A DNA stretch of 56,728 nt from a virus (Duplodnaviria > Caudoviricetes). The DNA is taken from positions 1-56,728 of the IMG/VR virus record IMGVR_UViG_3300017963_000058. One strand, 5' to 3'. This document shows positions 3,685 through 33,889 of the stretch, one piece after another. The position numbers and the translations under genes are program-made. How positions within the stretch are numbered: the stretch's first letter is position 1; each line of letters opens with the position of its first letter. Under the pieces are notes generated by a model, which was not told the DNA's origin, searched no databases, and saw only the letters and a list, made by a program, of their open reading frames with translations.

Positions 3685-3900
3685 AAACAAACCTATTTGA
3701 TTTTTTTAAATGAATTGAACAATATTAATTATAACTATCAGATTATTAAAGTTATTTGTTTTAAGTGTTTTTTGATAAACGATTTCGGTAAAAGTTTGAA
3801 TGTGATTTGAATTAATCTGTTAATTATAATAATTGAATTCATATTACGGGTGTATATTTTTGTAAAAACATAAAATAAAGATGTTTTAAATTCCATGAAT

Positions 3901-15573: not shown

Positions 15574-15596
15574 TAATTAAAAATAGAACAAAAGAA

Positions 15597-15604
15597 TATA
15601 AAAA
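15597..15604 (-). promoter_or_regulatory. TATA box TTTTTATA of a leaderless gene (representative copy)
   Basis: Same octamer 22-25 nt before the ATGs at 7481, 15573, 21019, 23818, 24272, 28941, 39167 and 47016. Confidence 0.8.
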
Positions 15605-15620
15605 GTTAAGTTAAAAAAAT

Positions 15621-18095
15621 TTATGCTGTATTATTAGATGCTACGGTCGTGTTAGTACCATTATTAAGAAGATTTATATCATTACCCCGTAAATGATTTC
15701 CATGTACAATATTATTAGCTGAACTTGCGTCTTGAATTAATATTCCATACCCATTACCAGCTCCAGCGTTATTCCACGATTGACAAAGATTTCCACATAA
15801 AGCATTGTAATCACTATTATCATATAACATGATTGCGGCAATTGTACCTCCACCAGAAAAGGTAGTATCATATACTACATTTCCACTTATAGCATTGAAA
15901 TGACTATCAGAAAGGAAAATTCCAGATTGTTGTGCTTGGTATATTGTATTTGCTTCAATAATATTATGTTCACTATTATCAAGATATATTGCATAATAAT
16001 CGGCTGAATATATTGAATTTCCAGAGATTTCTGAATAATCAACATCACTAAAAAACAAAATTCCAAAATCAGCGTCATTTATTATATTATAATTGACCTT
16101 ACAATAATTACAATTGTTTAATTGTACGGTATAATCTTCGCAATTAGCAAGATAATTATGGTGTATATCTACATAATTACAACCAGTTATATAAATATAG
16201 ATATTCCCTAAAGAATAAGCATGACAATATTCAATTGTAGTATAATCACTATTTATATATATTACTCTTCCATTAGTACTATCACCATAAAATATGCAAC
16301 TATTTACAACAACCGGGTTATCCACTCCATTTATTTTTATTGCGTAATATGCTTCGCTGGAATATCCCGATAAATCAAAAGCCATATTTTCAATTCTAAC
16401 GGAACTGGCACTAGTAATGTTAAACACATCACGATTACCATCGGGAGCTAAAACTGTTTCTGCTCCTACCCCCTTTATTACATACGATTTTCCCGTGTCT
16501 ATATCTACGGTTGTGGATACGGTCATTGTATCTGCTGGGAGATAAATCGTGCCTCCGTTTGTTAAATCGTCTATGGCATCTTGTAAGTCTGAAACTGTCG
16601 CTCCGTTTTTCAAAACTATCGTATCTTGATTAAAATATAATATGTTATCGGTTGGTACATCAATGACATCACAATAAATTTGTTTGCCGTATGCCGATTG
16701 TTCTAAATTATCTCCGAGAGAATAACTACCATCCCAAGAATAACTTATGGCATCGTAATAACCAATAGCTCCTGTTTGAGCCGTGCTTTGACATATCATT
16801 ATAGCAGCGACATTCCCAGTCGTCATGAAAGCATAATCTCCGTATTGAACCCCATCTATATATACACGCCAAGTGTTGATTGCCAACGCTCCATCTCCTC
16901 TCGGATCGTATCCCCCTGCCGTATCTTCAAAATCTATGGCAATATAATACCATTTTTTATCTTGAGCATTTGTTATAATAGTTCCTGCTGCTGAACCATA
17001 CCTAAATGTATCTAAATTGATAAAAAGTCTTGCTAAATCACTATAACTACTATTTTGAAGATAGAACTCGTTGGCTAAAGAAGCGTCATCAACAGCCCAC
17101 CAGAATTCAATGCTTCCATAATCTTGACCAGAGAAAATTTGCCAAGCATAAACGGTTGTTCCTACAACAGTATTAGTCATTTTAAATACTTTAGAATGTC
17201 CTAAATAATCAGATACGACCCTTGCAGTACCAGAAGCAGGATCGTTGTTAATTGTAAACCCAGCAGGTTGAGAATCGTCAGAATCAGATGTAAAAGTGTA
17301 AGTTCCAACATAAGTACCAATTGGTACATCAAAATCTTCGTGGTATTTATTCATTTCATCGTACAAAGCGTTTTTCGTTGCTCCGTCAGTATCTCCATTC
17401 CAAGCGGAACTATATACTGCATCTTCTAACGCCCAATCATAACTTTCTAATTCTATAAACTTATCGTACATGGCGTTTTGAGTAGGAGCAACATCGTTTA
17501 CTCCGTTCCAAGATACACCGTAAGCAACATCGCTCAATACAGCTGCTCTGGCATCAGTAGAAATGTAAGGCGTATGATGATAATCACCAGTAGCTATATG
17601 AGTAGCTATTGAATCAAATAAAGCGTTTTTACTCATCGTATGTACTGTATCTCCGTTCCATCCCACGCCATAAGCATCGTCTTTTACTTGAATGTCTATG
17701 CTTTCAATGGCGTTGTATAAAGCGTTTTTACTTGCTGCATCAGTATTTCCGTTCCAAGAAGCATCGTAAGGATCGTCACTTACTGGGGCAGAACCAGCTG
17801 CTCCTTGATTGTTGGTTCTCTCCCATCCAGTACCATTCCACACTATCCAATCGTTTTCGTAATAATCTACTGTTAGAATCGTTCCAGCAACGGTTATTAC
17901 CCAATAATCTCCAGTATTTGGAGAATCTGATGGTATGCTTCCACCCGAAGCGTCGTGTTCGCCAATTCTCTTGAGAAGCGTTAATTGAGAATCCGTAATT
18001 CTTGTCATGGCATCAACAATTACTGGTAAATATTTCGTGCCTTTTACATCCAAGAGATTTATCAATTCTGAATATTGTCCATATACTCCACTCAT
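15621..18095 (-). CDS. Spike/fibre protein 2, beta-helix with inserted lectin-like (ConA/LamG-type) domain
   Basis: Paralog of spike 1; extra about 200-aa beta-sandwich (GSIEFWW...KWYYIAID...WRVYIDG). Confidence 0.85.
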   Translation of the reverse strand: MSGVYGQYSELINLLDVKGTKYLPVIVDAMTRITDSQLTLLKRIGEHDASGGSIPSDSPNTGDYWVITVAGTILTVDYYENDWIVWNGTGWERTNNQGAAGSAPVSDDPYDASWNGNTDAASKNALYNAIESIDIQVKDDAYGVGWNGDTVHTMSKNALFDSIATHIATGDYHHTPYISTDARAAVLSDVAYGVSWNGVNDVAPTQNAMYDKFIELESYDWALEDAVYSSAWNGDTDGATKNALYDEMNKYHEDFDVPIGTYVGTYTFTSDSDDSQPAGFTINNDPASGTARVVSDYLGHSKVFKMTNTVVGTTVYAWQIFSGQDYGSIEFWWAVDDASLANEFYLQNSSYSDLARLFINLDTFRYGSAAGTIITNAQDKKWYYIAIDFEDTAGGYDPRGDGALAINTWRVYIDGVQYGDYAFMTTGNVAAIMICQSTAQTGAIGYYDAISYSWDGSYSLGDNLEQSAYGKQIYCDVIDVPTDNILYFNQDTIVLKNGATVSDLQDAIDDLTNGGTIYLPADTMTVSTTVDIDTGKSYVIKGVGAETVLAPDGNRDVFNITSASSVRIENMAFDLSGYSSEAYYAIKINGVDNPVVVNSCIFYGDSTNGRVIYINSDYTTIEYCHAYSLGNIYIYITGCNYVDIHHNYLANCEDYTVQLNNCNYCKVNYNIINDADFGILFFSDVDYSEISGNSIYSADYYAIYLDNSEHNIIEANTIYQAQQSGIFLSDSHFNAISGNVVYDTTFSGGGTIAAIMLYDNSDYNALCGNLCQSWNNAGAGNGYGILIQDASSANNIVHGNHLRGNDINLLNNGTNTTVASNNTA

Positions 18096-18106
18096 TTTTT
18101 TATCAC

Positions 18107-20653
18107 CTATGCCGTGTTATTATCTGCTGCGTATGTGGCAGTACCAGCATTACTATAATTGGTTTCGTTTCCCCTGCAAGAATTTCCAACTATGGTATTA
18201 TTATTACAATCGGCACGACCTACTGCAATGCCCCAAGCATTACCAGTACCGAAGTTCCAGAAATTATGGCAAGTATTTCCATAAACGAGATTGTCGTCGC
18301 AATTAGCGGCACTCCAATACCTTCCGATAACGATTCCAGCACACCAATATATCGTGTTTTCGTCTCCATCTTCAAATTGGTTTCCTGTTATAGCATTATA
18401 ATGAGATTCCACATATAAATTGACTCCCACGCCTATTAATTGAGCTTGATTTCCGCTTATTGCGTTGTATTGACTATTACTTATGCCTATGAGAGCATCA
18501 TCGTTGCCCCATGTTTCTGATTTCCGAGTATTTCCCCTGAAAACACTTGCGTAGATGTAATTAAACTCGTATGTAGCACGGCTGGAAACATGGTTCGAAG
18601 AATTATTCGATACGATTGCTCTCGTCAAGCTTCCCCCAGTTATTTTTCTCAAACCACACCATAACGCACTTGTCCTGCTTTCTTTGAACACATTTCCATC
18701 AACTATGAGATCAGATACAACATCTGAATCGGGAATTTTAATACATTCGTAGCCATCTGAAAAGAAATTATTAACAATAAACACATTGTTTTGTTGCACG
18801 ACAACTGGTTGTCCGAGCCAAGTTCCCGCAGTACGCATGAAAACACAATTTCGTATCCAGACTGGATTGTTGTTGGTATCGTTGCATATCACTCCATAAA
18901 TATGTCCTGTCCAGTTAGTAGAATCAAATGTTACATTTTCTATCACGACAGAACTTGCGTCGGTAATGTTGATGAAACTATAATCTCCACTTACTTGTAA
19001 GATTGAACTCGTTCCTTGACCTTCGAGTATGTAAGATTTCCCAGTATTAAACGCTATGGCACTTGAAAGAGAAATCGTGGATGATGGGAGAACAACACGC
19101 CCACCATTTGTTAATTCGGCAATGGCATTAACTAAATCTGATTGCGAAGCTCCTGAATTTACAAACACGACATCTCCGATTTTTACATAGTTGTTGTTTT
19201 TCGGATTTATGTTATCACAGAAAACTTGTTGTCCAGTTTCTTGATTTTCTCCAACATGATAATCTAATGTGGTAAATCCTATATCAGCATAATAAGAATA
19301 AACACTACTCTGAGCTGGAAATTGACCCCATTTCCACCATACAGTACCGTTATGTTCCATAGCAAATACTCCGAGTTTAATACCATCGACCCATAAAGCA
19401 TAAGTATATTGGCTTAACCCCATATAACCACCACTAGTATTTTCTATATCTATTCTTATACGATACCAAGTGTTTGCTGTTGGTGGTTTTCCCACATAAG
19501 TTATTGATGCTCCATTATAAGCATAAAAACGCCCATTTCTAATTCCCACTCTTATGCTTTCATCTCCATAAACATCCAAAGTTCTAAATTGGCTTCCCTT
19601 AGTTATATCTTGAACGGCTAATTTGAATTCTACCGTGCCAAAAGAAACAGTATAGTTATTTTTCGCAATATGTCTCCAATTCCACGCATCAGGATTTTCA
19701 CCTTTAATAGCTATTACATTGGATTCACCTAATAATGTATCCCAATGATGTAAATTGTAATATGTAACCGTAGTAGCTAGGTTTTGAAATCCACATTGTA
19801 AATTTTCATAAGGTTCATAAGTATAAGGAGTTCCACTTGGTTCTGTGGAAAAATCATAAGTAGCAGAAGTAGAGCTTCCGAAATCGTAATGAAATTTATC
19901 CATCTCGTCATATAAAGCGTTTTTACTTGCTGCATCGGTATTTCCGTTCCAGCTCGAAGAATATGCTGAATCAGAAACTGGGTTTGCTGGAAAATTCATG
20001 GATTCCATTTTATTGTAAACGCTTCTACACGATGGGGCGTGTGTAATTGTACCATCCCAACCGACTTGAAAAGATTGATCAAGTACGCAATCTGTTTTTG
20101 CTGCTGAATCGGTATATTTGACATGGTGATCGTTTGGAGCAACGCTAATATGGTTATACAGTTTATCGTACACGGCATTTCTACTCGGAGCTTCGTCTAT
20201 GACTCCATTCCATCCAGCTCCGTAAACTGCATCTGAGATCGTGATTAGTGATAAAGTTTCAATTTTATCGTACAAAGCGTTTTTCGTTGCGGGTTCTTCC
20301 GTTTTTCCGCTCCAAGTACCATCGTAAGGGTCATCGCTTATTGCTCCGCCCGGAGCACCTTGTTGATTTACTCGCTCCCAAGCCGTGCCGTTCCACACTA
20401 TCCAATCGTTAATATAATAATCAGTACCATCAATATTACCACCTCCCGATATGACCCAGTAATCGCCCGTGTCTGGATTGTTTGATGGGTCTGTACCATA
20501 CTGGGCATCGTGAGTTCCTTGATATTTAAGCAAGTTAGAAACAGACCCTTGAATGTCTTTTAACGCTTCTATGAGTATAGTCGGATATTTTAATTCTTTA
20601 GCTCCTAAAAGGTCTTTTATATCGTTAATACTTCCTATTCCTTTTGACGACAT
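18107..20653 (-). CDS. Spike/fibre protein 3, beta-helix with inserted lectin-like domain
   Basis: Paralog of spikes 1 and 2 (GDYWVI...YYINDWIVWNGTxW; GTVEFK...TWYRIRID...LWVDG; ends NNTA). Confidence 0.85.
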   Translation of the reverse strand: MSSKGIGSINDIKDLLGAKELKYPTILIEALKDIQGSVSNLLKYQGTHDAQYGTDPSNNPDTGDYWVISGGGNIDGTDYYINDWIVWNGTAWERVNQQGAPGGAISDDPYDGTWSGKTEEPATKNALYDKIETLSLITISDAVYGAGWNGVIDEAPSRNAVYDKLYNHISVAPNDHHVKYTDSAAKTDCVLDQSFQVGWDGTITHAPSCRSVYNKMESMNFPANPVSDSAYSSSWNGNTDAASKNALYDEMDKFHYDFGSSTSATYDFSTEPSGTPYTYEPYENLQCGFQNLATTVTYYNLHHWDTLLGESNVIAIKGENPDAWNWRHIAKNNYTVSFGTVEFKLAVQDITKGSQFRTLDVYGDESIRVGIRNGRFYAYNGASITYVGKPPTANTWYRIRIDIENTSGGYMGLSQYTYALWVDGIKLGVFAMEHNGTVWWKWGQFPAQSSVYSYYADIGFTTLDYHVGENQETGQQVFCDNINPKNNNYVKIGDVVFVNSGASQSDLVNAIAELTNGGRVVLPSSTISLSSAIAFNTGKSYILEGQGTSSILQVSGDYSFINITDASSVVIENVTFDSTNWTGHIYGVICNDTNNNPVWIRNCVFMRTAGTWLGQPVVVQQNNVFIVNNFFSDGYECIKIPDSDVVSDLIVDGNVFKESRTSALWCGLRKITGGSLTRAIVSNNSSNHVSSRATYEFNYIYASVFRGNTRKSETWGNDDALIGISNSQYNAISGNQAQLIGVGVNLYVESHYNAITGNQFEDGDENTIYWCAGIVIGRYWSAANCDDNLVYGNTCHNFWNFGTGNAWGIAVGRADCNNNTIVGNSCRGNETNYSNAGTATYAADNNTA

Positions 20654-20674: not shown

Positions 20675-21019
20675 CTAAGTATAAATATTTTCTTGATTAT
20701 TTATCGTATCATAAAATTCTTGAAAATCAGTTGGTAAATTATCTGGTGGTAATATCTTTAATGGTCTGTCGTATATTTCGCCTACTTCGAGATAAAGACA
20801 ACCTATTGGTAATGCTCCTTCTTTTTTTGCGTCTTCAATGTTTTTACAATTCTTATTTATTTCAAACCTATTTTCGTATATCGTACACGACATGGTTTCA
20901 GTATCTAAATATTGACAATGATGATTTGTAAGGATTAAATTCAAATTTAATTCTTCAATATAATAAGAATGAAAACAACACAATCCTTTTATTGGGCATT
21001 CGTTACATAAATCTTCCAT
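20675..21019 (-). CDS. YkgJ/YcgN-like cysteine-cluster protein
   Basis: CxxC...GLCC, CQYLD...CTIYENR...C...LPxGC. Confidence 0.75.
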   Translation of the reverse strand: MEDLCNECPIKGLCCFHSYYIEELNLNLILTNHHCQYLDTETMSCTIYENRFEINKNCKNIEDAKKEGALPIGCLYLEVGEIYDRPLKILPPDNLPTDFQEFYDTINNQENIYT

Positions 21020-21062: not shown

Positions 21063-21437
21063 TTAATGTTTTTGTCCAGTTCCTCTAGGTATATAGGAAA
21101 TTAACGCAATACCGTTTAAATCAGCCGTTTGATAAATATTGATTGTCCTATCACCAGTTATCACGAATTCTCCTGCTCCGTCGGGGGCAACTCCGGGAGA
21201 CATTTGACCAGATGGGAGAAAAACAAACGATAAATCGTTGGCTGGGGTTTCAGATTCAATGAGAACTATGCTGAGAATTGGAGATTGTAAACTTCGGTCT
21301 ATTGCGGGATACTGGCTATTAAGAGTAAGGGTTTCGACACCAGCAGCACCGGTCGAAGTGTGAGCAACAGCTACGGTAATAGCTCTTGCAAAATCTTTTC
21401 CACTTGGACTTTTCGGGGTAGTTATTGGATCTGCCAT
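21063..21437 (-). CDS. Beta-rich putative virion protein
   Basis: SD GGGGTGAT; rich in small residues and beta strands; coupled to the 173-aa gene. Confidence 0.6.
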   Translation of the reverse strand: MADPITTPKSPSGKDFARAITVAVAHTSTGAAGVETLTLNSQYPAIDRSLQSPILSIVLIESETPANDLSFVFLPSGQMSPGVAPDGAGEFVITGDRTINIYQTADLNGIALISYIPRGTGQKH

Positions 21438-21450
21438 TTAATATCACCCC

Positions 21451-21972
21451 TTAAACCAGAAGTTGTTTTCTAGGACCAATCAAGAACGCAAATGGATAAA
21501 CAACACCAGTCAAGTCAATACCAGAAGCATTATACACTATCCAAGCAATCTTGTCGTTTTCTTTGGCGAAAACTACTTGCTGTGGTTCAATGTATAAGTG
21601 CTGGTCGCAATTATAACAGAATCGAGCCATGATTTCTTGACGCTTTATTCCTTCTAGGTCAATTTCAAGAATGCCGTTTGCTCCTAAATCAAGTTCGGTG
21701 TACCAACCTAAGCTGATAACGCCTTGTCCGATAGGTACTCTCTGAGCTGCTGATTGAGCTAAAAGATACTCGTCAGTTGCGTTAGTGTATTCAGCAGAAT
21801 AAGTTTCTGCCGTTCCACCAATAACTTGATCGTTTGGTCGAATCAAACGAGCTGCAATGTCTTCTAAAGGCACGGATTTGTTATAACCACTAACTACGAC
21901 ACGATATTCATCAATAATAGCCATGATCGTGTCGTAAATTTCTGGATCTTTGGTTAAAAAATATCCTAACAT
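21451..21972 (-). CDS. Candidate single-jelly-roll major capsid protein
   Basis: 173 aa; N-terminal helix then about 8 alternating beta segments, ending VVYPFAFLIGP; heads an operon in the structural module; fold is inferred. Confidence 0.4.
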   Translation of the reverse strand: MLGYFLTKDPEIYDTIMAIIDEYRVVVSGYNKSVPLEDIAARLIRPNDQVIGGTAETYSAEYTNATDEYLLAQSAAQRVPIGQGVISLGWYTELDLGANGILEIDLEGIKRQEIMARFCYNCDQHLYIEPQQVVFAKENDKIAWIVYNASGIDLTGVVYPFAFLIGPRKQLLV

Positions 21973-22096
21973 TTCTGAATCACTTCTTTTTTAATTTTTA
22001 ATAAGGTTTGTTTTATTTTTGATAGATTTATTATTTAAAATACGATTTACAACATATTTAAATATGATGAAAAAGTATCTATATTTGTAGATAAAG

Positions 22097-22372
22097 GTGA
22101 TATTTATATATCGTTTTACGAAAGCTCCTAAAAACCATTTATTTGCTTATAAAAATGGTCAAATGCTTGAACATAGACTTGTAATGGAACAATTCTTAGG
22201 TCGTTATCTCAAACCCGAAGAAGTAGTACATCATAGAAACGGAATTAAAACAGATAATCGAATAGAAAATCTAAAAATATTTAAAAACAATAAAGAACAT
22301 ATTGAATATCACGATTCGCTACAAGAAGAAAAAATAAAAAGGTTTAATGTATATTGCCATTTGATACGATAA
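22097..22372 (+). CDS. HNH endonuclease (core only)
   Basis: EHRLVME...VVHHRNGIKTDNRIENL. Confidence 0.85.
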   Translation: MIFIYRFTKAPKNHLFAYKNGQMLEHRLVMEQFLGRYLKPEEVVHHRNGIKTDNRIENLKIFKNNKEHIEYHDSLQEEKIKRFNVYCHLIR

Positions 22373-22602
22373 AAGATGCCATGATAAAAGAAATGATAAA
22401 TTATTTCTTGGTTGATGTCGATAACTTGACTAAATATATTCAAAAAGCCAATTTTCAATACCAAACTTATATTCAAACTGGATTTGCTATTCAAGCTAAT
22501 AAAATTAAAAATGCCGTGAATTATTTAATTGGAAGAAAGAATCAAGCAAATAACTTTATCTTATTTCTTAAAAGAGAATTAAAAGGAAAAATCCCGCCAT
22601 GA
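22354..22602 (+). CDS. Hypothetical protein
   Basis: Overlaps both the HNH and AbrB genes in a + strand cassette. Confidence 0.55.
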   Translation: MPFDTIKDAMIKEMINYFLVDVDNLTKYIQKANFQYQTYIQTGFAIQANKIKNAVNYLIGRKNQANNFILFLKRELKGKIPP

Positions 22603-22808
22603 AAATATTAGGTAATGCTCCAATATATCAAAAAGGAAAAATTACTATTCCAAAAAAGGTAAGAAAACATTTAAAAATTGAAGCTGGGGATAGTGTAATT
22701 TTTGAACTCAGGACTTTAAATAATTACGAAAGCATCGTTATCCTCTCAAAAAACGAACTAGAGGAAGAAAAAAAAAGATTCATTACTTATGCTGCTAATA
22801 AGGACTAG
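22599..22808 (+). CDS. AbrB/SpoVT-family DNA-binding protein
   Basis: KGKITIPKKVRKHLKIEAGDSVIF. Confidence 0.85.
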   Translation: MKILGNAPIYQKGKITIPKKVRKHLKIEAGDSVIFELRTLNNYESIVILSKNELEEEKKRFITYAANKD

Positions 22809-23818
22809 CCTTGATTAACTCCCGATTTGCGAAATCTATTCTTGGCTTGAAAACCTTTTCCGAATTTGCTTACATCCTTGAATCTCTTGCTTGTATCTTG
22901 GTAGCCAAAATCGTCTGCTGTTTGTGCGACGGCATGAAACCCTCGTTTTAAAGCTAAAGACCCACGACCACCTGCTGGACCAGTTCCTTCGCTTACTCTA
23001 ACTCTTTTTTTGTTAGCAAGTGATTGTACCATGTAAGACGCATTACCGAAAATATTTCCAAGTTTATAACCGAGTCTAGTTGCTCCGACAGCATTTCCAA
23101 TGTTTTCCATTGATTGTTTTACTGCTGCTGGATCTTTAAACATTGAATCGGCAACACCATAAAAACTCCTGTTTTTGATTGCTCCCTTGAGAATGTTTAT
23201 ATCTTGAGCCATTTCATTCAATTGCTCTGGCGTTGGGTCAAAAACATTGGCAATATAATTGGCAAAAAAGGTTATCCATTCGCTTTTCATATTAGGCGAT
23301 TTCATGAACTTGTTTACGGCAGCCACACCACCAGCACCTATGCCTAACGACAATAGTTTTTTCCATAGTGTCTTTAAACCCATATCCATTGGAAATCGTG
23401 AAATATTGGCTAAAGACTGCATGATAATCTCTTCTGATGTACTACGATTATCAGTTATAACTGTTCCTAGCTTCGGAATTTTACCAAAAAGGTTTACAAT
23501 AGATAGACTCTTATTTTTAAGTGCCATACTTTTATAATTGTTTTCTCTATTTATAAATTTTAAGTTCTTAGTCCCTATTTTACATAACGGGCAATTATCG
23601 TATTTCTTCAAGATTCTTTTCATATCTTTATGAGAATAAGCTGATTTTGAATATTGAACTTGTATGAGCTTGTATTTTCCCAATCCAGACGCTCCCCAAC
23701 TAAAAAGGATGTCCGAATTATTTTTCCCTTTTTTATAAGTAGTTTTTTCATACGGTAGGTCAATATTTTCTTCGATGATTACAATCCAATGATTCCCAAT
23801 TGAATCTAATTTTGCCAT
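22805..23818 (-). CDS. Basic, possibly membrane-associated virion protein
   Basis: 337 aa; hydrophobic LLSLGIGAGGVAAV; basic tail; own TATA box. Confidence 0.7.
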   Translation of the reverse strand: MAKLDSIGNHWIVIIEENIDLPYEKTTYKKGKNNSDILFSWGASGLGKYKLIQVQYSKSAYSHKDMKRILKKYDNCPLCKIGTKNLKFINRENNYKSMALKNKSLSIVNLFGKIPKLGTVITDNRSTSEEIIMQSLANISRFPMDMGLKTLWKKLLSLGIGAGGVAAVNKFMKSPNMKSEWITFFANYIANVFDPTPEQLNEMAQDINILKGAIKNRSFYGVADSMFKDPAAVKQSMENIGNAVGATRLGYKLGNIFGNASYMVQSLANKKRVRVSEGTGPAGGRGSLALKRGFHAVAQTADDFGYQDTSKRFKDVSKFGKGFQAKNRFRKSGVNQG

Positions 23819-23852
23819 TAATAAAATAAAGGGATTAATAAATATAAAAAAA

Positions 23853-24272
23853 TTAGGTTTTTTTCTCTTCTTTTTTAAGTTCTTTTATTTCTTCTTGGTC
23901 AAATATTGATGGCATTTGGATTTTATGTCCATTAGTTTTTTTGGATTTTGATGGTCGCTTTATTGGTTGATTTTTAGCGTCAAATAGAGTTTCTAAAGAT
24001 TCAGTAATCATGTCTAATCCATATTCGTTAAAACAATACATGTTTATAATTTCTTGATTGATTGCCGTTAAAATCGAAAGAACTATGGCAATTTGCTTGA
24101 AATCATCGCCTTGTAAAATCCAATTTCCATCTTTTTCCGTGATGTCGATTTTTATGAGTTCGTTTATCCATTCTAATAACTTTTGTAATTCCTCGTCTTC
24201 GGGTTTTGAAATGACAAGACTAATCTCGTCTTTTTCGCTTTCTTTTATATCAATTGTAAATATAACTTTCAT
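23853..24272 (-). CDS. Hypothetical protein
   Basis: 139-aa ORF with TATA box 22 nt upstream. Confidence 0.75.
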   Translation of the reverse strand: MKVIFTIDIKESEKDEISLVISKPEDEELQKLLEWINELIKIDITEKDGNWILQGDDFKQIAIVLSILTAINQEIINMYCFNEYGLDMITESLETLFDAKNQPIKRPSKSKKTNGHKIQMPSIFDQEEIKELKKEEKKT

Positions 24273-24314
24273 ATTTTAAATATTGATAGTTAATATAAAA
24301 AGGTAAAACAAAAA

Positions 24315-24347
24315 AAGTTAATTTAAGTTAAATTAAGTTAATTTAAC
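24315..24347 (-). repeat. TTAA-periodic element, copy 2
   Basis: Reverse complement is identical to 42655-42687 over 33 bp. Confidence 0.85.
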
Positions 24348-24688
24348 TTTGGTTCGATCTTCTTTTTTAGATTATCAGCTTCTTTTATTGCTTTTTCTAT
24401 TTCTTCTTTAGCTTCTTTCGGTAATTCAGCCATGATTTCTTTTCTTCTTTTTTCTATGCTTTTCTTTCCTATTGTTTTTCTCATTGGAGGCATTTCTTTT
24501 TCTTGCTGTTTTTTTTTGGTTATTTCTTGATTGAGTTTATTCCTTAAAAAACCAATCGTGCCTTCTACTCTTTCTATGTTTCTAAATATCTGATTTAACT
24601 GTTCTTGCGTGGTATTCCGTATTTCAATTAGCCGTACTCGTTGTTGTTCTAATAGAGAAATTTCTCTTTCTAAATCTATATCTGTCAT
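24338..24688 (-). CDS. Coiled-coil protein
   Basis: Heptad pattern; TTTAAATA box upstream. Confidence 0.75.
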   Translation of the reverse strand: MTDIDLEREISLLEQQRVRLIEIRNTTQEQLNQIFRNIERVEGTIGFLRNKLNQEITKKKQQEKEMPPMRKTIGKKSIEKRRKEIMAELPKEAKEEIEKAIKEADNLKKKIEPKLN

Positions 24689-24730
24689 ACTTAAAATATT
24701 GTATGATAATATTTAAAGGAACTTCAAAAA

Positions 24731-25300
24731 TTAAACTCTTTTTGCTTCCACATCGTGATAAATAGGTTCTATTATATGAGCTGGTGGTGGCTCGGTAGAA
24801 ACAATGTTATCTACATCAATGACATTTCTCTGGTCAGTTGCATTAACGCTTCGGTCGTAAAATTTTAGATTTGTATTATTTCCTAAATCTTGTCCATTCC
24901 ATACTTCTATTTCAATTCCGTGAGAAGCATCACAATATTGAAATTTAATTCCAAATACAATGGCTTCATCATTAACTTTTAAACCAAAAGGAGCTGGTGT
25001 AAGACTTAAAACACCTCTTAATTGTGGTTTGACATATTCATCTCCAATACCTATAAATTTATCAATATCGTATAATAATTGGGGAGTTAATGTTTGCTTT
25101 CTGAAACTATGTGTTGCTCCTCTACCTTCTATTACGAATTTTTTACAAGTAAATCCTTCCACAAATTGAGAGTTCCCAGCGCGAAAAGGTAATGAAAATA
25201 GATAGATTTTATTATATTGCGGATCGTCATACCCTCCCCCACCACCGCTATAAATCCTCTGCATCCTATATTGTACATTAAATAATGGTACTATTCCCAT
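24731..25300 (-). CDS. Putative virion protein
   Basis: SD GAGGT; last gene of the structural operon; beta-rich. Confidence 0.65.
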   Translation of the reverse strand: MGIVPLFNVQYRMQRIYSGGGGGYDDPQYNKIYLFSLPFRAGNSQFVEGFTCKKFVIEGRGATHSFRKQTLTPQLLYDIDKFIGIGDEYVKPQLRGVLSLTPAPFGLKVNDEAIVFGIKFQYCDASHGIEIEVWNGQDLGNNTNLKFYDRSVNATDQRNVIDVDNIVSTEPPPAHIIEPIYHDVEAKRV

Positions 25301-25311
25301 ATTTTTTTACC

Positions 25312-26931
25312 TCATGGTGGTGGTATTATGATTATTTCTCTTCCTAATGGAGCAAGTATCAAACATCCCTCGTCTGGTTGGCAATCTAGCTGTCCGCCTA
25401 TTCCTGCATACGCAAAATAAAAATCCCAAGAACCTCTAATTACATGATAATTATTTCCTACCTTGATGGTAATGGTATCGTTAGAAAAAGCGTTAGTATG
25501 CACATTGAAATTTATTCTAACCCACATTTGAACATTTTCGGTTTCGCAATCGAATTCAGCATCTTCGATGTTATCGCTTGGAAATTCCACTCCACCGTTA
25601 AATTCGTGTAATCCACCGTTTTCTAACTGTAATACTTGGTCGGCAATGCTATACTCAATTTCAAACTTACATCCATTCTCGTATTTTCTCGGATTCAAAA
25701 ACACTCTTGCTTCTTCGTATCCAGAACCTTCTATTTCTACATAAGCGTATGTAACGGCAATATCGCCTTTATCAGCTCCGCCACCTATTACTAAATTCAC
25801 TTCAAGTTTCAATCTCATTTGGTTTAATTTGGTAAGATTGTCAATGACTCCCGATAAATCTGTCGAGAAAGTCAAATCAGCGTAAGTAGTAGAATTTGTA
25901 AAAGCAGTTCCGCCATCTTGCCAAATAGAACCATCCCATAAATACCCTTTTAAAGCTATTAAAGTTGCCGTTCCGCCAGTTCCAGCTATTAGCTTGATTT
26001 TTGCGTGAATTCTTACCTTTGTCGGAGTTATTGAAAGATAAGAACCATCCATGTCTTCAAAATCGTAATATTCGTCATATAATCCAACACTTGGGTCATC
26101 AGCAGGAATTGAAATGTAATTCACATCTCCATCGTCATCATCTAAATACGGAGATGTGCCGTGATGAGTCCAATCTTGATTTACATTAGTCCAGCCATCA
26201 ACTTCTTGGTCATCGTTAATGCTTATTGCTCCGTCTTCTTCAATGTAAATCCTGAAAAAAGAACAGCCAATTGTTCCAGTTGTTGGAACACTACTGTTCT
26301 TGTCGTAATAATAAAAAATTCTTCCAGTACCGTCAATAGTTCCAGTAAAAGTACCCCAAGTTCCAGTCAAATCAATTCTAGTTACAGTCACAGCAGCTTT
26401 ATTAATTGTAAAAGTTCCAGTAACGCTAAATTCTTGATATACAGTAGCAATAGAAAGTTTAGTTCCGCTAAAAGTATAATCTCCGCTTATCGTTAAATGC
26501 TGAAATGTTGCCGAAGCCGTGCTATTCCACACATAAGTTTTACTCGTACCAGACAAAATCACTTCGTGATCTCTTCCAGTTCCAGTACCAATTGCTATCT
26601 GTCCACTTCCAGAAGACGAGATATTTCCTTTTATTTCAACTATATAATTCGGACCACCTGCTGCTCCAAAATACCCTCCATCACAAGCTAAATCTCCGTT
26701 CACGGTCATGTTCGTGCCAAATATAACTGATTCTGTCATTGATGCCGTGCAATAAAAATTATTACTCACGGCATCGGAAGAAGCAAAACAAAAAGAATAT
26801 CCATTGCCGTCAAAATAAACATCGTCAGAAGCAGTAGGAATACCAGCACCACCAGCTCCCCCACTTACAGAAGCCCAATTGTTGTTATCGTGCCAATTTG
26901 TATCGACACCTACCCAGTATCTATCTGCTAT
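25312..26931 (-). CDS. Beta-rich virion/adhesin-like protein, about 539 aa, probable ATA start
   Basis: Frame is open 54 codons upstream of the called GTG, to ATA 26931 placed 7 nt after SD GAGGTGA; gives (M)ADRYWVG...W...NW...SGGAGGAGIPTASDDVYFD. Confidence 0.75.
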   Translation of the reverse strand: MADRYWVGVDTNWHDNNNWASVSGGAGGAGIPTASDDVYFDGNGYSFCFASSDAVSNNFYCTASMTESVIFGTNMTVNGDLACDGGYFGAAGGPNYIVEIKGNISSSGSGQIAIGTGTGRDHEVILSGTSKTYVWNSTASATFQHLTISGDYTFSGTKLSIATVYQEFSVTGTFTINKAAVTVTRIDLTGTWGTFTGTIDGTGRIFYYYDKNSSVPTTGTIGCSFFRIYIEEDGAISINDDQEVDGWTNVNQDWTHHGTSPYLDDDDGDVNYISIPADDPSVGLYDEYYDFEDMDGSYLSITPTKVRIHAKIKLIAGTGGTATLIALKGYLWDGSIWQDGGTAFTNSTTYADLTFSTDLSGVIDNLTKLNQMRLKLEVNLVIGGGADKGDIAVTYAYVEIEGSGYEEARVFLNPRKYENGCKFEIEYSIADQVLQLENGGLHEFNGGVEFPSDNIEDAEFDCETENVQMWVRINFNVHTNAFSNDTITIKVGNNYHVIRGSWDFYFAYAGIGGQLDCQPDEGCLILAPLGREIIIIPPP

Positions 26932-26945
26932 TGTGTTTTCACCTC

Positions 26946-28163
26946 TTACGATGCCAATAATAATTTCATTTTTAATGATACTGTCTGTGCTGAACTAAAA
27001 GCAATTCTAAGATAGACATTTGTACCGTCTTCGGTATTGAATAAATCTCTTGAATGAAATTCTGCTACATTGACAAGACCAGTATTAACAGCATGACTAT
27101 CAACATTATCTTCGGCAACCATCGTACTAGCTATGGTTTTTAACCGTGCCAATTCTCCATCGTCTAAAAACATTACTAATTCGTGTATGCTAAAATCAGT
27201 ATGGTCGTCTGGAATTATGTTTGCATCTGAACCCGTAGTTGCAGTATCCAACTCGGTATAAACGAGCTTTTTTCTGAATCGAAAAATCAAATTTTCTCCG
27301 TGTTTTGCTGATTCGGCATAAAAAGATACTGTCGCCCATTCAACAAACCCAGCTCCCGGATCGGCATCAATATATAATCGACCCCTTAAAACCCTACGGA
27401 TTTCATTGGAAATATCAATTGTAACATCTTCCGAAGCAGAAGCAGAAAAATCTATGTCAATATTTAATTCAGAATCATCTACCGTGTAAAAAATCCCACT
27501 AACTTCGTCATCTACATATTTCTTGGTTGCGTAATCTTGGTCTAATAGGGGATCTAACGCATCTCTAATTCGATGGCTATCCATGTCAATATCAGCATCA
27601 GCATGACCGTCAGAACCAAAAATATCGTTTATAGCTGCTCTCGATTCAGCATCAGTATATCTGACATGGTGTTGAGATGTTAATACATTTGTAAGAGAAG
27701 CGTGGTCTTTTTCGTTTAAATCTGCTAGATTAATTTCGCTTGAAGTGGTTTTCGTGTGGTGATCTGATGCTCCGATACTACCTAAATCGTTGTGGTTTAT
27801 GTTTGCTGGAACGACATCAATTTCCAATTCCTCGTTTCCAGCGGGATTATTTATGTTTTTAGATAATTTATTGCTTCCGAGAAGTAATTTATCGTTCAAA
27901 TAACTTGGAGTAGTATCTGTTCCTCTTACTCCAACTTTCTCGTCAGTTGAAACATTATTAACAAATTCAAGACCATCCTCTAAACCATTCACTCCAACAG
28001 TTTTCCCAGCTTGTCCAGAATAACTATCTGGTGTATCAGAATGTTCAATAAAGGTATCGTTTGCTTCGATTGAAGCTAAAAGGTCTTTTATTGCTTTAAT
28101 TACCTTAATATCTACATTTTCATTTAACATTAAGTTTTTTAGTTTTTCAGACAGGTTTCTCAT
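26946..28163 (-). CDS. Fibre-like virion protein
   Basis: DTPDSYSGQAGK, HHVRYTDAE (shared with the spikes) and DQDYATKKYVD fibre-type motifs. Confidence 0.75.
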   Translation of the reverse strand: MRNLSEKLKNLMLNENVDIKVIKAIKDLLASIEANDTFIEHSDTPDSYSGQAGKTVGVNGLEDGLEFVNNVSTDEKVGVRGTDTTPSYLNDKLLLGSNKLSKNINNPAGNEELEIDVVPANINHNDLGSIGASDHHTKTTSSEINLADLNEKDHASLTNVLTSQHHVRYTDAESRAAINDIFGSDGHADADIDMDSHRIRDALDPLLDQDYATKKYVDDEVSGIFYTVDDSELNIDIDFSASASEDVTIDISNEIRRVLRGRLYIDADPGAGFVEWATVSFYAESAKHGENLIFRFRKKLVYTELDTATTGSDANIIPDDHTDFSIHELVMFLDDGELARLKTIASTMVAEDNVDSHAVNTGLVNVAEFHSRDLFNTEDGTNVYLRIAFSSAQTVSLKMKLLLAS

Positions 28164-28665
28164 CTCTTATTGTGTATTTAACCATGATTTCATCAAATAC
28201 AGCACCAGAGATCGTGTTTATATCAATTCTAAACCCTTTCTTGAAATGAAAATTGCGTATGCTTAAGTAATATCTTTGGGTATCACTTTCGTATAATGCA
28301 GAGATGTTTTGAAGATAATCACTATTGGTAGAAAAATACGAATAGGTCTTGTCATATACAACATTACCGTCTATTGCGAGAAATAATCCGAAATCTGAAT
28401 TCTGTACCGTTAATAATATTTGTTCTATATTTCCCTTACCAGATGTTTCTATAACCTTATATGATTTATCTACTGTTTGATTATTCAATATTCTTGTTTT
28501 TGTAGTATATACATCAAAATCAAGTTTAATATTTCTTATTTTTTCGTCAATAATATCTTCTATTTCGTTTCGATTTGTTATGCCACCAGCTTCCGAGAAA
28601 CTTATGATTTTACCCTCTAACTCTGTTGCTCTTTCGTCTAATATGCTTTCTACTATTTCAGCCAT
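28147..28665 (-). CDS. Beta-sandwich paralog C (candidate jelly-roll minor capsid protein)
   Basis: GKGNIEQILL...IDGNVVYD...YYLSIRNFHFKKGFRIDI aligns with 30692-31297 and 31284-31892. Confidence 0.7.
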   Translation of the reverse strand: MAEIVESILDERATELEGKIISFSEAGGITNRNEIEDIIDEKIRNIKLDFDVYTTKTRILNNQTVDKSYKVIETSGKGNIEQILLTVQNSDFGLFLAIDGNVVYDKTYSYFSTNSDYLQNISALYESDTQRYYLSIRNFHFKKGFRIDINTISGAVFDEIMVKYTIRDEKPV

Positions 28666-28722
28666 CTGTTCTGCTGTAAGACTCTGGTCTTTTCTGTATT
28701 TTAATCTTTTTTGATTTTTTTT

Positions 28723-28941
28723 TTATTCTTCTATTTTTTTTTCAGCATCTCTTATTACCATTAACCCTTTTATTAACATCTCTCGTTGTTTTTCTATATC
28801 ATCGTAAAGCACTCGCATTTTTAAATCTAACTTGGACACGGCTTCGTGGACATTCCCATTGTTTCTATCCATGTGTTCTTCTTGAGTTTTTAACAATGCG
28901 GCAAGTTGGTCAATGGTGTTATCTTTTTTAGGACTGAACAT
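28723..28941 (-). CDS. Coiled-coil protein, in frame with 28147-28665
   Basis: TATA 23 nt upstream; a single TAA then 19 sense codons to the next ATG. Confidence 0.7.
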   Translation of the reverse strand: MFSPKKDNTIDQLAALLKTQEEHMDRNNGNVHEAVSKLDLKMRVLYDDIEKQREMLIKGLMVIRDAEKKIEE

Positions 28942-29009
28942 AATTTAAAATAGAGCAAATAAATATAAAAAGTTAAGTCAAAAAAGAAAAAAAAATAAAA
29001 AAATTTAGA

Positions 29010-29522
29010 TTAAGGCGTGTATTTATATCCAGATAGAAATCCAGCTAAATCTTCTCCATTAGCTTGAACCGTGTCCATAAAGCCAGTTATACCAGCAAGG
29101 TGTAAATAAACAGAAGCACTCCCCTCTGAATTATCTACGATTAAGAACGGTTCTTTGCTTTGGTCAGCAATTACTTGTGTACCAGTAATTAATGCTGCCC
29201 ATAATTGAGTGTATCCAGCAACACCAGAAAGAGGAGCAGCAAAAACAGCCGTAGTCGTGGCAATCTGAATGCCTTTTGCTCCCGTTTCGGAAGTACAAGT
29301 GATATGATATATTTCTAAAATTTCACCAGCTTCGACTTCAATCTCAACCAGAGATATATCATTAGCTCCAGCAGGGTCAGCCGTGCCAAATCCATTAACC
29401 TTATTAGCAGCTTTCCAGTTTTTATCTCTACCAAAAATTAGTTTGCCGTTTTTATCAAGTGCCATCTTGATAAATTTCACTAATTTTTGCTCTCCTACAA
29501 TGCTTTCAATAATATCTACCAT
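29010..29522 (-). CDS. Beta-rich putative virion protein
   Basis: SD GGAGGTGG; Ala/Gly/Thr-rich with beta pattern. Confidence 0.65.
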   Translation of the reverse strand: MVDIIESIVGEQKLVKFIKMALDKNGKLIFGRDKNWKAANKVNGFGTADPAGANDISLVEIEVEAGEILEIYHITCTSETGAKGIQIATTTAVFAAPLSGVAGYTQLWAALITGTQVIADQSKEPFLIVDNSEGSASVYLHLAGITGFMDTVQANGEDLAGFLSGYKYTP

Positions 29523-29524
29523 TT

Positions 29525-30013
29525 TTAACCACCTCCACCTCCTCTTGCATAGTCAGTCACCGTAGTAACTACGGCTGGTCTTTCTGTCAATTGCTTGACG
29601 GTATATTTCCAACCAAAAAACCAAAATGTTCCAGTTACAGCATATCCTTTTGGATTATAAACATTAAAAGCTGGGTAATAAGGATTCATTATCCACATTG
29701 GAGCTTTAATTCCTGCGGGATAAGAAGCTAAAATATTATCTAATCGTTGGGTTATGCCGTGTGGCGACCAATGGGGTACGCCTTCTGGAAATTGGAGTTG
29801 GAATGTAAGATAACCATCAACAGCTACTCTTAGAATTTGATATAGAAATTCACGGTTAGGTTGTAAATCGTCATCAAATTTTTGAGTAGTTGCTGTAACT
29901 GTGGCAAGAGTAACTTCTTTTTTATAAATAAGCAAGTCTTTAGAAGTGATCTGAAAGTACATATCGCCTATTTGGATGTTTTCACCGATTTTAATTCCAT
30001 CTTCATCGATCAT
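29525..30013 (-). CDS. Candidate single-jelly-roll capsid protein
   Basis: 162 aa, all-beta pattern, ends PAFNVYNP...TGTFWFFGWKYTV; fold is inferred. Confidence 0.4.
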   Translation of the reverse strand: MIDEDGIKIGENIQIGDMYFQITSKDLLIYKKEVTLATVTATTQKFDDDLQPNREFLYQILRVAVDGYLTFQLQFPEGVPHWSPHGITQRLDNILASYPAGIKAPMWIMNPYYPAFNVYNPKGYAVTGTFWFFGWKYTVKQLTERPAVVTTVTDYARGGGGG

Positions 30014-30089
30014 TTTAAAAACCTTTTTAATGTGTTATATAACTACTGGTTGTCGTTAAATTTAAATATTTAGGTGATTTTATTTACTT

Positions 30090-30695
30090 ATGATAGAACT
30101 TCCGACTCTGCATTGTAAACGATGTAATCATTTTTGGAATCCGAGAATGAAAAAAATACCGAAAAAATGTCCGAAATGTAAATCATCAAGTTGGAATATA
30201 GACAAAAAATCATATCACGATAAAAAATGGCTAAAAAATCAATATATTACTTTAGAAAAATCTACAAGAGAAATTGCTAAAGAACAACAAGTAGATAAAA
30301 AAACCATTACGAATTGGCTCAATAAGTTTAAAATTCCGATAAGGCACGGAAAAGAAGCATATACAGAAAGAGTTAAAGAAAAAATATCTGTTTTTATGAA
30401 AGAAAATGCTCCGATGAAAGGAAAACCATGTCCTAATAAAAAAGATTCTGTAATCAGTTCAGATGATTATATTTTAGTTTATTTGCCTAATCATCCTTTT
30501 TCAATGACACAAGGTTATGTTAGAGAACATAGATTAATAATGGAACAGCATTTAGGTCGATATTTAAAACCCGAAGAAAGAATACATCATATTAACGGAG
30601 ATAGAAAAGATAATAGAATAGAAAACCTGCTCTTATTTGCTTCTGAATCCCAACATCAACAATATGAACACGAAATTAAGAAAAGAATATTTTAG
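30090..30695 (+). CDS. HNH homing-type endonuclease with Zn ribbon and HTH
   Basis: CKRC...CPKC; STREIAKEQQVDKKTITNWL; EHRLIME...IHHINGDRKDNRIENL. Confidence 0.88.
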   Translation: MIELPTLHCKRCNHFWNPRMKKIPKKCPKCKSSSWNIDKKSYHDKKWLKNQYITLEKSTREIAKEQQVDKKTITNWLNKFKIPIRHGKEAYTERVKEKISVFMKENAPMKGKPCPNKKDSVISSDDYILVYLPNHPFSMTQGYVREHRLIMEQHLGRYLKPEERIHHINGDRKDNRIENLLLFASESQHQQYEHEIKKRIF

Positions 30696-31297
30696 GATTT
30701 TTTAAGATTAACTCTTTGAAGCGTTTTTATCCGAATAATCTTGAATGTCGCTTGAGAGTTCAAAATCCGAATGTAAATTGAATTCCGATAAAAGATTGAC
30801 TTGAATTTCAACACATAATAAGTGTCATCGTCTTCACAGCTCAAATCTTCTTCGTATCCGTGTCGTTCCGAGAATTCAGTCCAAGTGCCATCATAAACGG
30901 CTAATCCATCGGCTAAAATCTCAATGGTATATATTTTATTAGTTGCTGGTGTATTATCAGATAATAAATACATTTCAGAAACAGCTCCCTCGCCTCGTTC
31001 GTTTACGAGAATGAATTCGCCAGTTACTTCTTTCTCTTTATGCTGATATACTTTAGTCGTATATCGTGGTCGAGCATAATGCTGTATCTCTTCGCCTTCC
31101 ATTGAAAGAGCTAAACTGGGGTCTGGAAAAAACACCATCCCGTTTGTATCTATTATTTCTTCTTTTTTGCTCTGTTGTATTGCTTTTATTTTATTCTTGG
31201 CATCTACATACAATTTCTTGATTTCTTTCATTGATTCGTCTATACTTTGCAGAGTATTTCTTATTGATAATTCAAACATTTTTTCATGCCCTCTCAA
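30692..31297 (-). CDS. Beta-sandwich paralog B
   Basis: FFPDPSL; GEGAVSEMYLLSD...ILADG...YDGTWTEFS. Confidence 0.8.
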   Translation of the reverse strand: MRGHEKMFELSIRNTLQSIDESMKEIKKLYVDAKNKIKAIQQSKKEEIIDTNGMVFFPDPSLALSMEGEEIQHYARPRYTTKVYQHKEKEVTGEFILVNERGEGAVSEMYLLSDNTPATNKIYTIEILADGLAVYDGTWTEFSERHGYEEDLSCEDDDTYYVLKFKSIFYRNSIYIRILNSQATFKIIRIKTLQRVNLKKS

Positions 31298-31892
31298 TTT
31301 TTTTCATGTATATCATACTAAAAATAGCAGTAGATTGCTGGATTTGAATGAATATATCTTCTTTATAAAAAATATCTTGGAATGCGAGAACATAATAAGT
31401 ACCATCGTCAAAACAACTCATGTCGCTTAAGTATGCCGAAATAGCAGAAAATTCTGTCCAAGTACCATTGTATATTTCGTTGCCATCAGCTATGATTTGA
31501 ACTTTATACGCTTTATTAGTCGGAAGCGTACTATCAGAAAGAAGAACAACTTCAGATATAGCTCCCTCACCTTTTTTATTAATGATGGTGTATGTACCAA
31601 TTACAGATTGGGCAATTTTTAATACTTGCGTGGTGTATTTTTTTAACTGTTCGAGAATGTTTCTTTCTTCTGTCGTGCTTGGCGTTTCAGTAGTAGGGAA
31701 CTGTGGAATTACAGAGGTTAAAGCTGTCGGCTCTGGAAAAAATTTAGGTTTCGTTTCGACATCATTTCCATCACGGCTCAATCTGATCGGCTTACTACGG
31801 TAATCATCTTCCTTACCAGAATCCATTATGGCATCAAAACTCTTCTTGACTTCTTTTACAATCCTTTTCCCTAAAGACTCTTCATTACTCAT
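31284..31892 (-). CDS. Beta-sandwich paralog A
   Basis: FFPEPTA; GEGAISEVVLLSD...IIADG...YNGTWTEFS; tandem duplicate of B. Confidence 0.8.
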   Translation of the reverse strand: MSNEESLGKRIVKEVKKSFDAIMDSGKEDDYRSKPIRLSRDGNDVETKPKFFPEPTALTSVIPQFPTTETPSTTEERNILEQLKKYTTQVLKIAQSVIGTYTIINKKGEGAISEVVLLSDSTLPTNKAYKVQIIADGNEIYNGTWTEFSAISAYLSDMSCFDDGTYYVLAFQDIFYKEDIFIQIQQSTAIFSMIYMKKIERA

Positions 31893-33145: not shown

Positions 33146-33889
33146 ATGACTCAAGGCACTAAAGAATGGGCAGATAGCAACATAAACATTTTTCACGGCT
33201 GCTCGAACGATTGTACTTATTGCTATGCGAAAAGAATGGCGATCCGATTTGGCAGGAAAACCAAAGAGAATTGGAAAGAAATGGAACTGAACGAAAAAGC
33301 GTATAACAAGGGATATAAATTGCGAAAAGGGAGAATAATGTTCCCTACAAGCCACGATATTACGATTAAAAACATTCACGAATGTATTACCGTATTGAAA
33401 AAAATTCTCGAAGCTGGAAACAATGTTCTTATAACGACCAAGCCACATCCCGCCTGTATTTACCTTATTTGTGAGGAATTAGAGAAATACAAGAAAAAAA
33501 TGCAGTTTCGCTTTACCATTACTTCTAATGACGATTCAATTCTCAAAGAATTTGAACCGAATGCTCCCGACTACGACCGAAGAAGAGCGTGCGTTCGATA
33601 CGCTCATAAACAGGGATGGCAAACATCAATCTCAATTGAACCGTTTTTAGACGAAGACCCAATACCGTTAATTCGGGATATTGAACCATTTGTCAATGAA
33701 ACGATATGGATAGGGATAATGTCGGGTCAATCATTCAAGCATCACTCAGATCACAACCTAAAAAAGGTCGTGCAAGGTATTAATACCTTACCCATAGATG
33801 TTCGTGTTAAGATAAGATTGAAAGACTCCATACGCAATAGAGGGTATCAAATAAATGAGAATGATAAGGAAATCAATGGGAAAGTTTAA
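33146..33889 (+). CDS. Radical-SAM-like protein, DUF5131 (phage Gp37/Gp68)-type
   Basis: TKEWAD...GCSNDCTYCYA (CxxxCxxC), LITTK, SISIEP. Confidence 0.8.
   Translation: MTQGTKEWADSNINIFHGCSNDCTYCYAKRMAIRFGRKTKENWKEMELNEKAYNKGYKLRKGRIMFPTSHDITIKNIHECITVLKKILEAGNNVLITTKPHPACIYLICEELEKYKKKMQFRFTITSNDDSILKEFEPNAPDYDRRRACVRYAHKQGWQTSISIEPFLDEDPIPLIRDIEPFVNETIWIGIMSGQSFKHHSDHNLKKVVQGINTLPIDVRVKIRLKDSIRNRGYQINENDKEINGKV

Follow-up and report, generated by a model that had tools for sequence, protein, structure and literature searches.

The 56,728-nucleotide (nt) window analysed here, record IMGVR_UViG_3300017963_000058 of IMG/VR, represents a complete 56.7-kb double-stranded DNA (dsDNA) virus of archaea, with a host probably among the Bathyarchaeia. 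On its minus strand, between 21 and 32 kb, lies a block of genes that includes eight for small proteins, and two of their products, P162 and P170, are single jelly-roll proteins according to their AlphaFold2 models. P162 and a further protein of the block, P173, surpass all other proteins of the genome in conservation, including those for replication. We tentatively propose that the block is a virion-protein module, in which P162 and P173 would form the shell or its vertices and P170 and P124 would be their faster-evolving partners.

The eight open reading frames (ORFs), which a sequence-only reading had put forward as a set of small all-beta proteins, are all present in the ORF listing and all lie on the minus strand (Table 1). 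Because homologues of P162, P170, P173, P124 and the three paralogues exist elsewhere, these are genuine genes and not chance ORFs. The two pairs that had been regarded as coupled through a Shine-Dalgarno (SD) sequence are indeed arranged in this way: P170 starts 2 nt past the stop of P162 with GGAGGTGGAGGTGG as its SD, and P124 starts 13 nt past the stop of P173 with GGGGTGA. A TATA box of its own precedes P162, whose start is leaderless. The stretch GGAGGTGGAGGTGG (29525–29545) provides both the codons for the C-terminal Gly run of P162 and the SD of P170. The Gly-rich tail, following an Arg or polar residue, is kept in the close P162 family and more loosely in distant members; since GGAGGTGGAGGTGG doubles as an SD, the tail may owe its retention to a role in the protein, to translation of P170, or to both.

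Paralogy of the other three proteins was likewise borne out, with pairwise E values from 2.7e-39 (B versus A, 48.7% identity across 119 amino acids (aa)) through 1.6e-9 (C versus A) to 5.7e-6 (C versus B). They have a C-terminal domain of about 110 residues in common, and the N-terminal 70–90 or so residues are variable and poorly aligned in an alignment of five members. A search with the profile of the paralogue alignment returned only the three proteins of the virus itself. Paralogue C matches phrog_12947 (E 7.4e-5), a family of unknown function, and its look-alikes in the Atlas (score 0.94, 200 of 256 features) are mostly hypothetical proteins of Uroviricota. P124 gave no Pfam or PHROG matches. 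P189 is encoded by the last gene of the operon running from 28723 to 24731, with AGGTAA as SD upstream of its start, and has no Pfam, PHROG or PDB sequence match.

Table 1. Genes and sequence features of the window (positions refer to the whole 56,728-nt stretch).
Feature	Position	Strand	Remarks
P124	21063–21437	minus	124 aa
P173	21451–21972	minus	173 aa
P189	24731–25300	minus	189 aa
Paralogue C	28147–28665	minus	172 aa; overlaps start of 405-aa fibre-like gene
P170	29010–29522	minus	170 aa
P162	29525–30013	minus	162 aa; conserved C-terminal ...YARGGGGG tail
Paralogue B	30692–31297	minus	201 aa from TTG start; 195 aa in public gene call
Paralogue A	31284–31892	minus	202 aa
405-aa fibre-like protein	26946–28163	minus	PHROG: virion structural 1.6e-6, tail 3e-4, tail fibre 3.5e-3
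485-aa protein	25312–26769	minus	same operon as P189 and 405-aa gene
Three single-gene units (116, 139, 337 aa)	22805–24688	minus	own TATA box and leaderless start each
Three paralogous beta-helix fibres (627, 824, 848 aa)	13690–20653	minus	Pfam Beta_helix, NosD
Gene with presumed HNH-type motif HHINGDRKDNRIENL	30090–30695	plus	between paralogue B and P162; motif read from translation
Second gene with presumed HNH-type motif	22097–22372	plus	opposite strand to the module
AEP primase fused to large helicase-like protein	433–3690		
AAA_24 ATPase, DUF2240, PD-(D/E)XK nuclease, DUF932 and GP88-like proteins			recognisable by Pfam
C5 DNA methylase, radical SAM protein, PadR-like regulator			further recognisable genes
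Genes with (A/C)CTTTTTATAT-like box	28723–28941, 24338–24688, 23853–24272, 22805–23818, 20675–21019, 13690–15573	minus	

Structure prediction covered two of the eight proteins, P162 and P170. Six close homologues of P162 were found at 66–77% identity, and an exhaustive profile search widened the family to 63 representative clusters (50% identity) at E≤1e-3, of which 24 reach E≤1e-10; the P162 model used 59 sequences. For P170 there are seven homologues, and the model used nine sequences. The predicted local distance difference test (pLDDT) and template modelling (pTM) scores were 93.7 and 0.86 for P162, and 78.3 and 0.72 for P170, in which the first 20 residues are disordered. Both models are all-beta, eight-stranded jelly-roll sandwiches, and neither has the immunoglobulin-like or other fold that would speak against a jelly roll. 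The description as all-beta thus stands for these two; for the paralogues it is unlikely to apply along the full length, because their N-terminal regions vary and align poorly. An earlier structure search of the ESM Atlas with P162 gave cupin-like rows at template modelling scores below 0.5 with a model of pLDDT 0.60, and is superseded by the AlphaFold2 model.

Foldseek matches to the PDB were marginal, with best E values of 4.7e-4 for P170 and 1e-3 for P162. The neighbour lists (Foldseek, VIA) consist almost entirely of jelly-roll capsid, nucleoplasmin, phage cement, GOLD, TNF/C1q or Ena proteins. They include SPV1 capsid chains and, if we assign the chains correctly beyond what the entry titles give, the HHIV-2 penton chain and STIV turret chains. 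Residue numbers in chain 6h82_b run from about 40 to 173, and the first 40 residues of the HHIV-2 penton protein are disordered, as described in the portion of PMC6414509 available to us; because the numbering fits, we infer that 6h82_b is that protein. Profile comparisons revealed no relationship between P162 and P170, between the paralogues and P170, or between P124 and P170. A complex prediction for P162 with P170 (score 0.00, mark 0.32, run without controls) weighs neither way.

Conservation was ranked against one relative, split over contigs G001:C14 and G001:C170, and fell in the order P173 (80%), P162 (73.5%), a 94-aa protein (57%), the GP88-like protein (55%) and the primase (53%). The relative comes from a metagenome-assembled genome (MAG) titled 'Candidatus Bathyarchaeota archaeon'. 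An 11-kb contig of this MAG (L002) carries, in order, a beta-helix fibre, a radical SAM protein, a sulfotransferase, the orthologues of P162 (73.5%) and P170 (40%), a paralogue (40%), a 987-aa fibre-like protein and one more paralogue (42%). The MAG has a further contig, G001:C170 (21.8 kb), that shows synteny with another large portion of our genome, with identities of 80.3% for P173 (173 aa), 42% for P124, 44% for DUF932, 55% for GP88, 46% for AAA_24, 53% for the primase, 38% for a 400-aa protein and 42% for a 217-aa protein. The coupled partners P170 and P124, the paralogues and the fibres are among the least conserved proteins, with fibres and paralogues at 27–42%. The fibre genes of the relative are placed elsewhere in its genome.

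Beyond this relative, the P162-family profile matched in 5 of 401 sampled genomes of the class of the MAG as compared with 2 of 401 genomes sampled across the phylum. The P173 profile matched in three of the 401 genomes of the class sample, all three of which also carry a P162-like gene. The P173 and P162-like genes of contig G677:C92 are separated by about 330 nt. In genome G643 (loci L013 and L016, contig G643:C24) both genes are found on a 372-kb contig, where the P173 copy is 31% identical to ours (E 1.5e-22), ABC-transporter genes lie between the two and a homologue of the 217-aa protein is nearby; given the length of the contig, this copy is integrated or a degraded remnant. The gene order there is DNA methylase, P173-like, solute-binding and ABC-transporter genes and P162-like, followed downstream by AbiE toxin-antitoxin, Cdc6/Orc1 and OLD-like genes; the P162-like ORF is intact (159 aa), and the extended frame around it holds one TAG. 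At three further loci (L006, L014 and L015) several small proteins come after the P162-like gene, and next in line is either a carbohydrate-binding protein or one of about 480 aa; homologues of P170, P173 and the paralogues were undetected on these contigs, and comparing the neighbours of distant P162-like genes with the profiles of P170, P162 and the paralogues revealed no relationship. A distant member of the P162 family, P0081, lies on a 67,463-bp contig of the Joint Genome Institute, and a P170 homologue of 77% identity, P0009, on one of 30,612 bp; both contigs are probably further genomes of the virus group. No relatives were found in IMG/VR by scans with the 485-aa protein and alignments A1 and A6, and none among deposited phage and archaeal virus genomes, which were searched with the region by megablast and with paralogue C and the 594-aa protein by tblastn.

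Other capsid and packaging genes were sought with Pfam and PHROGs in all ORFs of at least 250 aa, all proteins of the module and ten further small ORFs, which yielded no match to capsid, portal, terminase, tape-measure or packaging-ATPase families. When the entire record was scanned in six frames, Terminase_6N, Phage_capsid, Phage_portal and FtsK_SpoIIIE gave nothing at E≤1, while the positive controls matched (FtsK_SpoIIIE in 14 of 14 genomes). The strict Walker A pattern is confined to three ORFs, which encode the AAA_24 protein, the primase-helicase and a DUF5661 protein, and a looser GK[ST] scan added nothing in the unassigned 594-, 963-, 485-, 406- and 400-aa proteins. PDB sequence searches gave nothing significant for the P162 family, the paralogues, P189 and the 485-, 594- and 217-aa proteins. 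At the sensitivity of HMMER and motif searches the genome thus has no recognisable packaging motor, which argues against a tailed virus and against viruses of the PRD1 or sphaerolipovirus type. Together, the missing HK97, portal, terminase and FtsK matches leave room for a jelly-roll capsid.

These searches bear directly on the alternative that the virus is head-tailed (Caudoviricetes), with HK97, portal and terminase proteins too diverged for HMMER and with the jelly rolls serving as decoration, cement, turret, tail or baseplate proteins. Searches at this level can miss very diverged genes of these three kinds, and jelly-roll proteins do decorate HK97 shells in tailed viruses, as the HFTV1 turret (8qpg), the KHP40 cement protein (7dou) and Pam1 (7eel) do. 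We nevertheless consider a head-tailed virion unlikely: no HK97 capsid, portal or terminase was found here with working controls, P-loops were confined to replication genes and the DUF5661 protein, no ORF has the size of a tape measure, and five related contexts are equally devoid of hallmark matches.

We infer a shell role for P162 and P173 from the confident jelly-roll fold of P162, the top conservation of both, the strong promoter of P162, the co-occurrence of the two genes and the absence of another capsid system from the searches above. In the proposed module, P162 and P173 would be the major capsid protein (MCP) plus a second shell or penton protein, and P170 and P124 would serve as penton, turret or cement-like parts placed on these shell proteins or between them. 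The virus would use neither an HK97 capsid nor a portal or terminase. As no packaging ATPase was detected, we expect that, in the manner of SPV1, the DNA would be condensed and taken up while the particle assembles, and not pumped into a preformed shell.

The closest parallel is Sulfolobus polyhedral virus 1 (SPV1; Portogloboviridae), which has about 20 kb of circular dsDNA and a shell in which VP4 forms hexamers and VP10 pentamers, each a single jelly-roll protein, and which surrounds a membrane and a nucleoprotein coil (ICTV profile). The two are alike in that a packaging ATPase is missing here at HMMER sensitivity, and the 123-bp direct terminal repeat of the window would fit a circular molecule too. 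As possible counterparts of the nucleoprotein core and lipid layer the window offers small basic proteins (24338–24688, 23853–24272) and a few hydrophobic segments, and nothing among them is decisive. The Sphaerolipoviridae (Helvetiavirae) and other vertical single beta-barrel viruses (HHIV-2, HCIV-1) build their capsids from the MCPs VP4 and VP7, with VP9 as penton protein; their two MCPs are vertical single jelly rolls that form heterodimers, and what the window shows in this respect is limited to two predicted jelly rolls from adjacent coupled genes. Sphaerolipoviruses and STIV have packaging ATPases, whereas no FtsK/HerA-type ATPase was found here, the P-loops being those of the AAA_24 protein and the primase-helicase. 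STIV has a double jelly-roll MCP, which was not found here either, and the matches to its turret entries (3j31, 4ind and 6bo3; the title of 4ind reads 'triple jelly roll ... turret') cover a single domain at background level.

Several observations weigh against a shell built on P162 and P173. In the PDB sequence search P162 could be linked to none of the solved capsid proteins, by sequence or by profile, and PHROG matches were found for none of the 59 family members. The best structural neighbours are vertex, turret or cement proteins and not hexon-forming MCPs, and the top match of P170 decorates an HK97 capsid. P173 aligned colinearly with the P162-family profile over 66 columns, with Prob 5% and E 0.0075; this is not significant, and homology of the two was not accepted. 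P170 was not found beside the more distant P162-like genes. Genome size is a further difficulty: 56,728 bp is almost threefold the genome of SPV1, and sphaerolipovirus genomes are given as about 30 kb in the part of the literature available to us. To our knowledge, 57 kb exceeds the genome of any dsDNA virus with a single jelly-roll (SJR) capsid.

Some P162-like genes, moreover, lie in contexts that may be cellular, namely L014 (60% guanine plus cytosine (GC), UbiA, subtilase) and L006 (PEGA, DUF2341, CBM6), and Ena proteins occur among the structural neighbours. P162-like proteins could be viewed as subunits of cell-surface fibres or appendages, Ena- or pilus-like, encoded by a module of chromosomes and mobile elements that the virus carries as cargo or as a borrowed adhesion device. 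This we regard as highly improbable. The genes here and in the relative lie within a complete viral genome, between fibre and conserved viral genes; P162 has no Pfam match, DUF3992 included, so that by sequence it is not a member of the Ena/DUF3992 endospore-appendage family, and the matches to Ena do not rise above background.

The sequence-only reading had distributed possible capsid roles (one or two MCPs, penton and decoration proteins) over about eight small proteins. Its jelly-roll capsid gains partial support from the models of P162 and P170, but we disfavour its extension to the whole set. The paralogues fit fibre-associated proteins that are exchanged between virus groups, because fibre-like genes accompany them in every context (paralogue C at the 405-aa gene here, two paralogues flanking the 987-aa gene in L002) and because of the PHROG match and tailed-phage look-alikes of paralogue C. 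The 405-aa protein is 34% identical to part of the 987-aa protein. All three beta-helix proteins have a common N-terminal domain of about 255 aa (50–53% identity) with a GDYWVI...NDWIVWNG..W motif, and HH(V/S/T)(K/R)YTD repeats are common to them and the 405-aa protein. For the 485-aa protein, Pfam, PHROG and PDB gave no match. In our proposal the three paralogues would join the 405-aa, 485-aa and three beta-helix proteins in the fibre and adsorption apparatus.

A wider role in adsorption is conceivable if the virion is not icosahedral (spindle-shaped, pleomorphic or other). Its body would then consist of small hydrophobic or helical proteins, and the jelly rolls, paralogues and fibres would form a terminal adsorption structure. 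P162-like genes always precede small proteins and then large carbohydrate-binding or fibre-like proteins (CBM_6 plus DUF2341 in L006, CBM_4_9 in L013, the 405- and 485-aa proteins here), and the missing packaging ATPase is shared with spindle-shaped and pleomorphic archaeal viruses. A spindle-shaped virus family of Bathyarchaeia is known from the available part of PMC10541130. The window also encodes one small hydrophobic protein (38865–39167, minus), an isolated 100-aa ORF with a strongly hydrophobic core and a Pro/Glu-rich tail, and if the virion is spindle-shaped or pleomorphic, no other candidate than this ORF presents itself for a small capsid protein of membrane type. It has no Pfam match and no homologue in the related contigs, which cover part of the relative. 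Adsorption parts normally vary fastest, as the fibres and paralogues do here, and the conservation of P162 and P173 would be unusual for them. We hold a non-icosahedral virion to be unlikely, though deserving of serious weight.

Genes for possible modification and maturation enzymes were also noted. A radical SAM gene is found near the P162-like gene in four of six contexts (33146–33889 here; 2657–3802 in L002, 2800–3987 in L006 and 3104–4513 in L014); next to the P162-like genes L002 carries a sulfotransferase besides radical SAM, L006 a radical SAM/SPASM gene, and L014 MptE-like and B12-radical SAM genes. Structural proteins may be modified post-translationally, to judge from these neighbours, which would suit a surface-exposed structural protein. 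The 217-aa protein (53931–54584, minus) has no Pfam match and is conserved in G001:C170 (42%) and G643 (25–28%). Y.GHG..D and Y..AC.T are invariant in two aligned sequences, motifs which we take to resemble the His/Cys dyad of caspase- or gingipain-type peptidases. By its sequence the protein could be a protease for maturation of virion proteins.

Within the structural module the motif HH.NG..DNRIENL occurs in the two opposite-strand genes that break it up. A small AbrB/SpoVT-like ORF (22599–22808) adjoins one of them, the gene at 22097–22372, and has a conserved counterpart in G001:C170. Basic stretches occur in the 116- and 139-aa proteins, and the 139- and 337-aa proteins have orthologues of 27–28% identity in G001:C170. 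Many genes of the genome have a TTTTTATAT-like box about 25 nt upstream of the ATG without an SD, which we read as the pattern of archaeal leaderless transcripts; internal or downstream genes of operons are instead preceded by GGAGG/GGTGA motifs. Between 13690 and 32000 the minus strand shows regular promoters, with (A/C)CTTTTTATAT-like boxes about 25 nt before the ATG and, again, no SD.

The IMG/VR record data place the window in the direct-terminal-repeat class with 100% completeness, and its first 123 bases equal its last 123 bases. GC content ranges from 26 to 40% along the genome, with about 33% overall, and no tRNA genes were found in the 56,728 bp. The recognisable genes (Table 1) belong to the repertoire of archaeal viruses or mobile elements. 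Assignment of the host was based on MAG binning and one integrated copy; DNA of the genome is present in sediment and seawater metagenome runs, and two runs contain every word sampled from it.

Only four virus families, of head-tailed, filamentous and spindle-shaped types, have been proposed for Bathyarchaeia (PMC10541130, section 4, and PMC12451623, each as far as available to us). Neither this virus nor the protein family was found described in the accessible literature, and the 56 viral genomes of PMC10541130 might include a relative. A complete genome that combines highly conserved jelly-roll proteins with a lack of recognisable capsid or packaging genes suggests a type of virion as yet undescribed for Bathyarchaeia, which are among the most abundant archaea of sediments. 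The P162 family, with its 63 clusters, would be a marker for such viruses in metagenomes. More speculatively, and on balance doubtfully, the virus could, as its first member, open a new lineage of high rank among archaeal dsDNA viruses, with an icosahedral shell of separate single jelly rolls (P162 and P173, joined at the vertices by P170 and P124), a genome of 57 kb and no packaging motor; the cysteine-protease-like gene (53931–54584) and the radical SAM genes may then mature the shell proteins, for instance at the R-GGGGG tail of P162. If true, this would extend the SPV1-type solution from Sulfolobales of hot springs to abundant archaea of marine sediments, in a genome roughly two to three times as large as that of any dsDNA virus with an SJR capsid known so far. 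Should the capsid reading hold, the module would represent a third independent single jelly-roll capsid of dsDNA viruses and would bear on the origin of the double jelly roll.

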